Origin: an uncultured Chloroflexia bacterium
Lineage (GTDB): Bacteria > Chloroflexota > Limnocylindria > Limnocylindrales > CSP1-4
Reading direction: 5' to 3'
DNA: 64,000 nucleotides
Assembly: GCA_963821235.1 (NCBI GenBank)
Contig: CAWGCS010000001.1
Coordinates: 46,804 to 110,803, forward strand
This document shows positions 46,130 to 49,656 of the stretch, piece by piece (the stretch's first letter is position 1; each line of letters begins with the position of its first letter). Both the position numbers and the translations under genes were made by a program. Under the pieces are notes generated by a model. It did not search any database. It was given only the letters and a program-made list of their open reading frames with translations, and was not told the origin of the DNA.

Positions 46130-49100
46130 TCAAGCCGGTTCACGCGTGCTCGACCTGTGCTCGACCGAGCCGACCGCCCCGGTCCGGCCGGACGCAGCCG
46201 CGGAGTCGGGCCCCGGAAGCTCCGCCAGACGCCTGGCGATCCGATCGGCCAGACGCCGGCGGTCGTGGCGACGCCTCGACCCGACGAAGGCTGCCCACGC
46301 CGCGCTGGCGAGGGCCGTCAGGCCGAGGCCGGCGAGGAGCGGCCCGTCGGCGGGAGCACCCTCGCCCGTGCCAGGCAGGGCGGCCGTCCCTGCCTCCATA
46401 CCCGGGACGACGTCGGGACCGTCGGGCGAGGTCGACGCCAGGCCGTCTAGCCCCGCGTCGAAGGCCGCGGCGTCGAGGGGCAGCGCCTCGCCAAGGTCGC
46501 CGAGGCGGGCGAGGTCGACGGCCGACGCCACCTCGATCCGGGCGTCCGGTCCCGGCAAGACCCGTCCGGTCGCCGTGACGGCGTCGCCGGGCTCCAGGAG
46601 GGCCACCAGCGGGGCGGCGTCCCCGACCAGGCGCAGCTGGCCGGTGGCCGTTCCGTCGTCCACGACGGCGCCGGCCTCGTCCACGGAGACGACCAGCCCT
46701 CCGACGCGCACGCGCCGTCCGGCGAGCGCGGCGATGGCGGCAAGGTCGGCGTCGGCGACGGCGTCGGCGGGCGCGATGACCCCCGACGTCGCCGCGCCGC
46801 CCCACGGGCGCGAGGCGCCTCCGGCGACGGCGGGGGGACGCGGCGACCCGGCCGCGGCACCACCGGTCGCCCTCCCTGAAGCCACGCGGACGTCGGATAG
46901 CCCGCGGGGCACAACCGCGAAGCGACGGTCGGATGCGGCGGGGTGCGGCCGCCGTACGACGCCGACCACGGTCGCGACCGCGCCCTCGCGCAGGGCGGCG
47001 GCCGGGATCCCGGCCCCGGGGAGCCCGGCGACCACGACCGTCGCCTGTGCCGTCCGGACCTCGGCCCGCCAGCGGTCGCCGAGCCGCTTGACGTCGACGA
47101 CGGTGCCGCTGATGCGGACGAGCTCCGCTTCGTCGGCCGGGCCGGGCTCCCGGACGACGGTCCGGGGGGCGGGCATCGGAGCGCTCCCGAGGACCGTGAT
47201 GGCTTCGGCGCGGAGACGGGGCGCTCCGTAGGCGGCGCCCATCAGGCCGTCGACACGGACGCGCGTCCCCGGCCCCGGGGCGGTCGACCCCACCGGCAGG
47301 AGGACCTCGACCGCGGCGGTCGCGTCCTGCACGATGATCCGGCGTGCCGAGGCGTCCAGGAGGGTCGCTGGGATGGTCACGACGGCCTCGACGCGGACCG
47401 CCGCGGCCCCGCGGCCCAGTGCCGCCACGACGGACGTGACCGGCGACGGGGGAACGGACCCGGAGGGGCCCGGCGACGGGGAGGCCTCCGGGGAAGGCGC
47501 GGCCGACGGGGCCGGCGCCACGACCACGACGTCGCCGCCGTCGCGCAGCCAGATCCGATACCCGTCCAGGGCGCCCTTGCGGGTCGCCCGCTGCCCGACC
47601 ACCCCCGAGATGCGCAGGCGCGCCCCGGCGTGGGCCATGTCGGCCGCGATCCCGGCGCCGCGGGCGGCGCGGGCACGGAACGGAGTCCCGGTCACGTCGA
47701 TGAGGCCGAGGCTGAGGTCGCCGTTCGACTCGCGAACGATCCGGCCGTCGAGGCGACCCTCGAGGACCACGAGTCGCGCCTCGGTGTTCTCGCCGAGGGA
47801 CGACGCGACCACGGGCAGCGGGTCAGGGACGGGGAGCGCCCCGAGGAGCGCGATGTCGCGGGGTCCCGGCCGGATCTCCAGCTGGCCATACGGGTCGGCG
47901 AGCTTGCCCGACACCCGCAGGACGGCGCCGCGGGGCGGCGGGGTCGCGCTGTCCGGCAGGCGGACGATGATCGCGGCCGTCGCGTCCTGGATGGCGATGA
48001 GGGGCGCCAGCCCCAGGCGACCCGCCTCGGCGGTGACGGTTCCCTGCACGATCACGCGTGCGTTCGTCCCCGCGGCCCGGGCGGCGGCGATCGAGAGGGG
48101 CGTCGGCGAGGGGGTGGGCGACGGGGTCCCGGACGGCGTCGGAGACGGCGAGGGGACGGGCGTCGACGCAGGCGTCGGAGTCGGGGCGGGGGTCGGCGTC
48201 GGGGCGGGGGTCGGCGCCGGCGTCGGGGCGGGGGTCGGCGAGCCGGTGGGCGATGGCGTCGCGGTCGGCAGGACCTCGAACGCGGCCGGATCGGTCACGA
48301 CCAGGCGGTAGCCGGTCGTCCCCGCGGCCGTCGTGTCGCGCTGCCCGAGCGGCCCCGCCACGCGGACCTCCTGGTCCCGCGCGGGTGCGGCAGCGCCGGA
48401 GAAGGCGAGGATGACCCGGAGCTGGCCGGAGCCGTCGTCGATGACGAGCGAGATGCCGCTCGTCAGCTGGGTCGGCGCCTCGACGATCCGACCGTCGGCA
48501 CCGACCAGCCGGCCTTCGAGGCTCTCGCCCGCGGCCCCGGTCGCGATCTGCAGCACGAGAGGCAGCGTCCCCGTCCCGAGCACCGTCGGGGCACCGTCGA
48601 GGCGGATCGTGCGCTGTCCGTAGCGGTCGTCGACCGTGCCGGCGGCGCGGACGAGGGTGCCTGCCGCGACGAGCGCGGTCGGATCGGTCGGCAGGAGGAG
48701 GGCGATGCCTGCCGTCGCGTCGGCCACGAAGCCGCCGCGACCGTCCTCGAGGGCCCCGAGCGGGGTGGTCAGGACTCCCTCGACGACGACCCGGGTCCCG
48801 TCGATCGCCGATCGCGCAGCGACGATCGGGATGGCCGGGGTGGGGGTGGGCACGGGCGTGGCGGTCGGCGTCGGCGTGGGACTCGCGGTCGGCATCGGCG
48901 TGGGCGTCGGGGTCGGGGTCGGGGTCGGGGTCGGGGTCGGCGTCGGCGTCGGCGTGGGTGTCGGCGTGGGACTCGCGGTCGGGATCGGCGTCGGCGTGGG
49001 GCTCGGGCTCGACCCCGGAGCCGGCGGGGCGGCGAGCGGCTGCGGAGCCGGCGCGTCCGACACGACCCAGTCGGCCGCGTTGTCGTTGGTGTCCACCACG

Positions 49101-49656
49101 TTGCCCGTCGCGCCACCGGGCCGCCGCTCGATCGAGCTGCCGGCAGGCGGCGCCGGCGCCGCCGTCCCCTCGACGAACGCGCTCGAAGCGTCGCCCCAGC
49201 CGACCGCGTCGAGGACCAGCCCGTCGGTCCGGCGGAGCACGATGGCGCCTCCGGTCGCCGCGATGCCCCCGCTGTAGGTGGCGTCGGCGCCGGCCGCGTG
49301 GATCCCGAGGGCGTTGGCGATCAGCACGTGTCGGCCGGGCTCGACGAGCAGCGACGTCCCCCACGACGCCTTCCGCGTGATCGTCGCCCCCGAGGCGGTC
49401 ACGTAGGCGATCTCGAGCCCCGCGAGGTCGAGCGGCTCGGGGTCCGCGTTCGTGATCTCGACGTACTCGTCGGAGGCCGAGGAGCCCCCGGTCACGACCT
49501 CGGCGACCAGGAGGCCGCTCGACGGCGGCCACGACACGGCGGCCGCGGGCGCGAGCGGCTCCGGCGCGGGAGATCGGCCCGGCGAGCCGGCCGAGGCGGA
49601 CAGGATCGCGAGCAGGACGGCGAGCGTGCCGGCGACGGCGCTCCGTGGCGCGCGCA
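46130..49656 (-). CDS. large surface protein with a signal peptide, lamin-tail domain, Pro/Thr linkers, four ~75-aa OB-fold-like repeats, and a C-terminal LPGTG-hydrophobic-RRRH sorting-like signal
   Basis: 1175 aa. The ATG at 49656 sits 8 nt after GGAGG. Signal peptide [26 protein letters not shown] block [23 protein letters not shown]...VGWG. Two (PT)n linkers. Repeats of the form V-V-G-VT...QDATAAI-V-LP...YG. C-terminus [42 protein letters not shown] plus a further 40-aa tail. Confidence 0.75.

Follow-up and report, generated by a model that had tools for sequence, protein, structure and literature searches.

The stretch of DNA analysed here (hereafter the window) comprises 64,000 nucleotides of contig CAWGCS010000001.1 from an uncultured Chloroflexia bacterium, has a GC content of ~75%, and carries on its minus strand a gene for a 1175-aa protein that combines a lamin tail domain (LTD) with an array of oligonucleotide- or oligosaccharide-binding (OB) barrels. 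An earlier note on this DNA had described the product as a surface protein with four OB-like repeats and an atypical LPGTG sorting signal, and had placed the gene at 46130-49656. The open reading frame (ORF) and the length of 1175 aa were upheld, and the end coordinate, one base short, was corrected to 49657. In the ORF list, the frame spans 46130..49711 on the minus strand and comprises 1193 aa counted from its first ATG; this alternative start, ATG 49711, would add 18 aa upstream. The start of the 1175-aa form was assigned to the second ATG, at 49657, because GGAGG lies 8 nt upstream of it and homologs share the N-terminal start MRAPRSA with this form. The GC content at third codon positions (GC3) of the gene is 0.92, and a promoter and terminator scan yielded nothing informative.

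AlphaFold2 models were computed for the full-length protein, using 58 sequences, and for its second repeat module, using 42 homologs. The gene and the segments of its product are listed below, with the supporting evidence in brackets; pLDDT is the predicted local distance difference test, PT and PS stand for Pro/Thr and Pro/Ser, and TM stands for transmembrane.

46130..49657, minus strand: whole gene, 1175 aa plus stop (second ATG, at 49657; GGAGG; homolog N-termini)
49586..49657, minus strand: predicted signal peptide, aa 1-24, with MRAPRS, a hydrophobic core and SASA/G (hydropathy, homologs, model)
49043..49540, minus strand: lamin tail domain, aa 40-205 (Pfam PF00932; pLDDT about 90; 66% mean identity)
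48827..49042, minus strand: PT-rich linker 1, aa 206-277 (sequence; pLDDT <50 for aa 217-264)
48263..48826, minus strand: tandem-OB module 1, aa 278-465, two barrels, acidic (self-BLAST against modules 2 and 3; pLDDT >90 with a beta-barrel strand pattern; charge)
48104..48262, minus strand: PT-rich linker 2, aa 466-518 (sequence; pLDDT <50)
47510..48103, minus strand: tandem-OB module 2, aa 519-716, two barrels, slightly basic (AlphaFold2, Foldseek, RPA profile match)
47441..47509, minus strand: PS-rich linker 3, aa 717-739 (sequence; low pLDDT)
46883..47440, minus strand: tandem-OB module 3, aa 740-925, two barrels, most basic part (self-BLAST; pLDDT >90; charge)
46766..46882, minus strand: Gly/Ala/Ser-rich linker 4, aa 926-964 (pLDDT about 30; 27% identity across homologs)
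46478..46765, minus strand: seventh, single OB barrel, aa 965-1060, acidic (PF01336; pLDDT >90; charge)
46340..46477, minus strand: acidic, poorly conserved spacer holding LPGTG, aa 1061-1106 (25% identity; pLDDT about 30)
46280..46339, minus strand: predicted TM helix, aa 1107-1126 (hydropathy 1.86; in nearly all homologs; model helix)
46220..46279, minus strand: conserved basic, putatively cytoplasmic helix, aa 1127-1146 (52% identity; consensus; helix continuous with the TM helix)
46133..46219, minus strand: variable, putatively cytoplasmic tail, aa 1147-1175, ending in REPA (low pLDDT; homolog ends)

Domain architecture and the number of OB barrels

The N-terminal signal peptide named in the earlier note was supported by a hydropathy peak at aa 5-25, a pattern kept in homologs, and by a predicted helix at aa 2-22; the signal peptide is probably cleaved. 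The LTD was likewise confirmed by the hidden Markov model (HMM) scan that had been proposed for it, in which PF00932 matched aa 46-155 with an E-value of 2.2e-10 and 41.3 bits, above the gathering cut-off of 34.3. The LTD is the most conserved part of the protein, with a mean identity of 66% across homologs, and is modelled as a confident beta-sandwich; the corresponding values are 43-53% for the OB barrels, 52% for the basic helix and 25% for the spacer. The PT-rich linkers described earlier are evident in the sequence.

The number of OB-like barrels required revision. Self-BLAST resolved three modules of ~180 aa, at aa 285-465, 520-715 and 738-925, which share 32-36% identity (E 1e-10 to 1e-17), as well as one OB that stands alone, at aa 965-1060. 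The AlphaFold2 model of module 2 (pLDDT 95.6) displayed two beta barrels, and the structure prediction that had been suggested for the repeats gave two OB barrels in each module. Self-BLAST and AlphaFold2 together show a total of seven barrels, comprising three tandem-OB modules of two barrels each and a single OB, rather than the four repeats counted previously; the earlier layout, which ran from the second pair of repeats straight to LPGTG, had passed over ~380 residues. A further proposal, an HMM scan for OB folds, succeeded in part: the seventh barrel matched PF01336 (tRNA_anti-codon) at aa 985-1042 with an E-value of 1.4e-6 and 28.5 bits, above the gathering cut-off of 27, whereas none of the six barrels of modules 1-3 reached Pfam significance. 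Module 2 was identified as OB both by profile (the RPA OB 3dm3, E 1.6e-4) and by fold, and modules 1 and 3 by self-BLAST, the full-length model and the fold matches of that model.

In the full-length model, pLDDT was about 90 or more over the LTD (aa 45-205), the double barrels (aa 270-465, 518-715 and 738-927) and the single barrel (aa 967-1060), with disordered linkers at aa 217-264, 470-516, 716-734, 928-965 and 1066-1108. The predicted template modelling score (pTM) was 0.35, indicating no fixed arrangement among the domains. The ectodomain is accordingly modelled as 'beads on a string', with an Ig-like LTD at the distal tip, followed by three tandem-OB modules and the seventh OB, all joined by Pro/Thr-rich disordered linkers.

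No enzyme is predicted within this architecture. Scans of the 1175-aa protein against Pfam and NCBIfam at E<=1 returned no catalytic domain and no match to an EEP nuclease, and every folded segment of the full-length model is either LTD or OB. The earlier statement that no recognisable nuclease (EEP) domain was visible agrees with all three analyses, and the finding that the earlier note had said would refute it, a known catalytic domain that explains the function, did not emerge from Pfam or NCBIfam. A hidden catalytic domain was also considered and rejected, given that both libraries were silent at that threshold and that the AlphaFold2 model leaves no folded region unassigned.

The LPGTG motif, the membrane anchor and the C-terminal tail

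The LPGTG motif reported previously is present, at aa 1094-1098 (window 46364-46378). Its position 8 residues before the hydrophobic helix, with a positive cluster beyond, resembles the signal of a sortase substrate, which would either be cleaved and attached to peptidoglycan or be retained by its extra tail. Conservation of the motif in orthologs, on which the earlier note had staked this reading, was not found: 0 of the 117 full-length homologs carry LPxTG before the TM helix. The corresponding site is DPGTAPGD in one and DPGMAPGD in the other of the two closest relatives, and the motif falls inside the least conserved segment of the protein. In a composition rich in Ala, Pro, Gly, Thr and Leu, LPxTG has a chance frequency of 1e-4 per position, equivalent to 0.12 per protein, and three homologs carry it at unrelated internal positions. 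Among the more distant cluster representatives, 4 of 95 have LPxT[GAS] in their last 150 aa, against about 4.4 expected by our own composition-based estimate.

The window itself contains two further LPxTG motifs, one in a DnaE-like polymerase and one in an AMP-binding, acyl-CoA synthetase-like protein, both cytoplasmic enzymes. The latter, encoded by an ORF at 16224-17963 (plus strand), has LPVTG eight residues from its C-terminus, a chance occurrence demonstrating that the motif is common in this high-GC proteome. No TLxTC sortase motif was detected in any coding-like ORF of the 64-kb window, in agreement with the earlier remark that the window holds no sortase gene. In addition, the chain does not end at the basic residues: beyond the TM helix come 20 aa of conserved helix and a tail of 29 aa.

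Because LPGTG is not conserved in orthologs, the sorting-signal reading fails. The motif is a chance match and a composition artefact, and the protein is most probably not a substrate of sortase; with ortholog comparison and chance statistics both against a sortase signal, we rejected that candidate and assign the sortase explanation next to no likelihood.

The C-terminal features that accompany the motif are, on the other hand, conserved. As the earlier note had described, a hydrophobic helix occurs (aa 1107-1126), RRRHDRRR comes after it (aa 1128-1135), and the chain continues for exactly 40 more residues. A TM helix is present in nearly all homologs, and the combination of TM helix, RRRRxRR and amphipathic helix is conserved across the set of 117 and in most of the 95 distant cluster representatives. 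The TM helix runs directly into the consensus RRRRxRRRLxARIARRLAxL (more loosely RRRRxRRRLxARxxxRLAxL), which is conserved at the level of the OB domains. AlphaFold2 presents the TM and basic helices as one continuous helix, aa 1107-1145, and the first 11 of the 40 residues after RRRHDRRR complete this family-conserved helix. What had been regarded as an oddity of a sortase substrate, an extra tail, is better described as the conserved cytoplasmic end of a TM-anchored family, and the earlier suggestion that the protein may remain membrane-anchored is most likely right. The conserved TM helix and the basic cytoplasmic helix therefore suggest a type I membrane protein, with the positive charges inside indicating an N-out/C-in topology; the bulk of the protein would lie outside the cell after export by a Sec-type signal.

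Beyond the helix, the tail is disordered and ranges from 21 to 76 aa across homologs. Despite this variation, 66 of the 117 homologs (56%) end in Ala, and the typical end is [RH][EGD][SP]A-COOH, with RESA in 9, REPA in 7 and xGSA in several; in the present protein REPA occupies window 46133-46144. This conserved extreme C-terminus could serve as a recognition or degradation tag.

Family, distribution and gene neighbourhood

The protein belongs to a well-populated family. More than 1377 database proteins matched at E<1e-5; among the best 120, most are 1100-1290 aa long, three are 839-884 aa, and nearly all combine an LTD with PF01336. Where names are given, they include 'lamin tail domain-containing protein [Candidatus Limnocylindrales]' as well as unrelated automatic labels; proteins from metagenome-assembled genomes (MAGs) of Candidatus Limnocylindrales that bear this name, or 'OB-fold nucleic acid binding domain-containing protein', are members of the same family, the names being automatic. 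Aligned along its whole length, 57 homologs are 46-62% identical to the present protein and share its architecture. When one genome was scanned for each GTDB species, 427 relatives were recovered, of which the best 80 come from MAGs labelled Chloroflexota, Chloroflexia, Anaerolinea/Anaerolineaceae or Limnocylindria/Limnocylindrales, with one Dormiibacterota; the GC content of the window is in keeping with this group.

A profile built from the LTD and module 1 was searched against a representative library clustered at 50%, in order to find the nearest relatives outside the family. It retrieved 735 representatives with E<=1e-30, a number that rose to 5551 for E<=1e-10 and to 27047 for E<=1e-3; the best 150 were all family members, with E<1e-98. 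Variants in the wider family include proteins of ~1000 aa with fewer OB modules, proteins with 4-5 copies of the LTD, shorter forms, and forms with more OBs; those longer than 1400 aa show weak matches to DUF5689 and DUF4131. No nuclease domain was found in seven sampled variants (P0155, P0157, P0175, P0205, P0236, P0253 and P0254), and a tblastn search of PLSDB plasmids for annotated relatives such as NucH gave no match. In the literature on Limnocylindria and on proteins with an LTD and OB folds, we found nothing, experimental or descriptive, on the family with an LTD and seven OBs. The family is unnamed and uncharacterised, although already present in databases under generic automatic names. 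What is new here is a nuclease-free, seven-OB, TM-anchored form of the bacterial LTD and OB surface proteins that is fixed in a whole class.

The gene order around the LTD gene is shared by essentially every related locus: an imuB-like gene, a dnaE-like gene, a divergent gene for a membrane protein of ~250 aa, the LTD gene, in some clades a PNP_UDP_1 gene, a DUF5679 gene, and then gap, pgk and eno. The window protein matches the family in architecture, length, C-terminal TM and basic helices, and this conserved locus. Comparison of these loci, together with the 427 relatives in species genomes, marks the LTD gene as a lineage-wide, syntenic core gene of the Chloroflexota class Limnocylindria. 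Its two immediate neighbours in the window are as follows.

49855..50538, plus strand: divergent conserved membrane-protein gene, 227 aa, GTG start (translation; no Pfam match)
45819-45959, minus strand: DUF5679 mini-gene, 46 aa, zinc-ribbon-like (Pfam E 2.6e-18)

The 227-aa protein is polytopic, with a basic N-terminus, MARAKRTxRAEARRRHR, and an invariant end, ...AAWYRRFL..SP.R. Because almost all related loci that include this flank have its gene head to head with the LTD gene, the membrane protein may be a functional partner. A role as a processing enzyme of the rhomboid or exosortase-like kind was considered and rejected, as the protein has no Pfam match and an alignment of 5 sequences contains no invariant Ser, His or Cys.

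The head-to-head arrangement also bears on a further explanation, that the protein is a transmembrane sensor or signalling device in which the ectodomain binds a ligand and the signal passes along the TM helix to the basic helix and to the conserved ...[ED][SP]A end, perhaps by way of the membrane neighbour. The cytoplasmic helix is as conserved (52%) as the folded ectodomains (43-53%), and the frequent terminal Ala with its recurring [RH][EGD][SP]A context would also be in keeping with signalling. Nevertheless, no output domain is recognisable, the tail past the helix is variable and disordered, and an arginine-rich amphipathic helix after a TM segment is sufficiently explained as a stop-transfer signal and membrane-surface anchor; we therefore consider a sensor very unlikely.

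On the other side, the stop of the LTD gene is separated from the DUF5679 mini-gene by 170 bp (window 45960-46129), and almost all related loci that extend to this point have the mini-gene in the interval from the LTD gene to gap. In a more distant clade, the gene immediately after the LTD gene encodes a PNP_UDP_1 nucleoside phosphorylase (13592-14437 in the relative locus L001); this gene is absent from the window and its closest relatives, probably because it was lost or relocated in that clade. The idea of a functional link to the phosphorylase was rejected, since its gene occurs only in the more distant clade and in none of the window's clade, and there is therefore no obligatory link to the LTD gene.

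Other genes of the window were recorded alongside. The DnaE-like polymerase (1449 aa, 50612-54961, minus strand) has PHP, pol3 alpha, finger, HHH and OB domains and contains long low-complexity inserts, with its LPGTG occurring by chance. Upstream of it lies the ImuB-like Y-family (IMS) gene (57960-59450, minus strand), and one relative has a RecA_N-like gene nearby; this set of imuB-like, dnaE-like and RecA_N-like genes resembles an imuA-imuB-dnaE2 mutasome cassette. The rest of the window is housekeeping and includes Mfd/TRCF (7297-11193), a 7TM-HD receptor (12601-14946), DnaK (30439-33078) and LepA (36478-39528), all on the minus strand. The stop-to-stop ORFs of DnaK and LepA reach far upstream of the Pfam-matched regions, and these extensions are probably mere open frames in DNA of 75% GC.

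Relation to surface nucleases and possible function

ExeM of Shewanella oneidensis and Xds of Vibrio cholerae consist of a signal peptide, an LTD, an OB region and an EEP nuclease; the OB region, which binds the DNA and in ExeM comprises two putative OB folds, is essential for DNA degradation, whereas the LTD is dispensable (PMC6085458, PMC6746945). The window protein shares with them the N-terminal signal peptide, the LTD, a linker and an OB region (YhcR-like in ExeM and Xds), together with cell-envelope association and a C-terminal hydrophobic anchor region. The likeness to ExeM/NucH-type proteins that the earlier note had drawn holds for this N-terminal layout of signal peptide, LTD and OB region. 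In contrast, the window protein lacks an EEP nuclease, its OB barrels number seven where theirs number one or two, and its PT linkers are long; C-terminally it carries a plain TM helix with the conserved basic helix, where ExeM and Xds have GlyGly-CTERM, and its host belongs to Chloroflexota while theirs are gammaproteobacteria. The NCBIfam models NF033680 and NF033681 scored 13.9 bits against a cut-off of 1300, in a match confined to the LTD (E 0.01). With no EEP domain and a score this far below the cut-off, the protein falls outside the ExeM/NucH family.

Bacillus subtilis YhcR, Streptococcus pyogenes SpnA, SsnA of S. gordonii and S. suis, and SWAN of S. sanguinis are cell-wall-anchored nucleases of Gram-positive bacteria, with OB arrays and a conserved LPXTG. 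Common to these enzymes and the window protein are several PF01336-like OB folds displayed on the cell surface by a C-terminal anchor. The window protein, unlike them, has neither a nuclease domain nor a genuine LPXTG signal, and is therefore not an LPXTG-anchored OB nuclease.

The best structural matches to the tandem-OB pairs were single-stranded DNA-binding protein (SSB) of Thermus and Deinococcus, the HIN-200 proteins AIM2, IFI16 and p204, RPA70, POT1 and CTC1, which share the fold of the OB pair and were matched with Foldseek E-values from 1e-9 to 1e-4. These proteins are cytoplasmic or nuclear and their barrels have another relative orientation, so that the likeness implies no shared family membership.

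As the most likely reading, although one that falls short of being probable, we tentatively propose that the protein is a non-enzymatic, multivalent surface tether for extracellular nucleic acid, most probably DNA. The ectodomain would bind extracellular DNA, or another polyanion, mainly through the basic modules 2 and 3, and would hold it on the outside of the cell, where it could be captured, scavenged or used for attachment to a matrix. In this the protein would resemble the substrate-binding half of ExeM and Xds, that is, their LTD and OB region, with the nuclease removed and the OBs multiplied; this likeness is suggested by the multi-OB nucleic-acid fold matches together with the order of signal peptide, LTD, linker and OB region. 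The seventh barrel passed the PF01336 cut-off and the profile search with module 2 led to the OB of an archaeal RPA, as described above, and the top Foldseek matches of module 2 and of the full-length model were all multi-OB nucleic-acid binders, comprising Thermus and Deinococcus SSB, HIN-200 with double-stranded DNA, POT1, RPA70, CTC1/CST, RADX and BRCA2. The basic character of modules 2 and 3 is kept throughout the family, and the second barrel of module 3 has a median pI of 11.3.

Several observations weigh against this proposal. The Foldseek values are modest, with E-values of 1e-9 to 1e-3, template modelling scores (TM-scores) of 0.3-0.44 and identities of 8-21%. The PDB is dominated by nucleic-acid-binding OBs, which biases the Foldseek list, and we infer DNA binding from the fold class only. 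The LTD, module 1 and the seventh OB, which holds the PF01336 match, each carry a median net charge of -9, and such strong acidity is unfavourable for the binding of a polyanion. Each barrel has few aromatic residues (2-4). Next to the LTD gene there is no gene for a nuclease, for competence or for uptake, and the nucleoside phosphorylase of the more distant clade is missing here. Against the ExeM/NucH models of NCBIfam, the OB modules gave no match at all, the LTD alone being recognised. Finally, a gene that is almost universal in the class and strictly syntenic with housekeeping genes would be just as compatible with a structural role in the envelope.

Such a role defines the principal alternative, in which the LTD and OBs bind a cell-wall or sheath glycopolymer, or envelope proteins, instead of nucleic acid. 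The protein would then act as a spacer, scaffold or anchor, with Pro/Thr linkers that cross the wall and may be glycosylated, and the membrane protein encoded divergently may act with it. The distribution of a syntenic gene over 427 species genomes of essentially one lineage is that of a housekeeping envelope component; most parts of the ectodomain are acidic; and the membrane protein encoded next to it is conserved. OB folds bind oligonucleotides or oligosaccharides, and some homologs match the periplasmic BOF family PF04076. Mans et al. (2004), as cited in PMC6085458 and PMC6746945, proposed moreover that bacterial LTDs tether proteins to membranes or the envelope and occur alongside oligosaccharide-binding domains. 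On the other hand, the sequence and profile matches lead to nucleic-acid OB families (PF01336 and RPA), Pfam and NCBIfam reveal no carbohydrate-binding, S-layer (SLH) or cell-wall-binding family, and no glycan-binding OB, such as the AB5 toxin B subunit, is among the Foldseek matches listed. We regard the envelope explanation as somewhat unlikely.

Returning to the nucleic-acid tether, a bolder form of it is conceivable, to which we give a distinctly low probability: the protein might be a nuclease-free 'DNA rope' that belongs to the core of the class and acts as a dedicated receptor, capturing extracellular DNA for uptake, scavenging phosphorus or nucleosides, or attaching cells to a matrix of extracellular DNA, perhaps in concert with the adjacent membrane protein through the cytoplasmic helix. 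If this were true, the 'DNA rope' would represent a kind of surface receptor for DNA that is new among bacteria and has no relation to ComEA or to the receptors of type IV pili. If the tether proposal itself holds, the widespread Limnocylindria of soil and freshwater would display a non-enzymatic, polyvalent DNA binder as a core trait. This would bear on how uncultured oligotrophs use extracellular DNA, whether they feed on it, build it into a matrix or draw genes from it. As a natural 'binding-only' version of the LTD and OB half of ExeM and Xds, the protein could also help to explain the lamin tail domains of bacteria.

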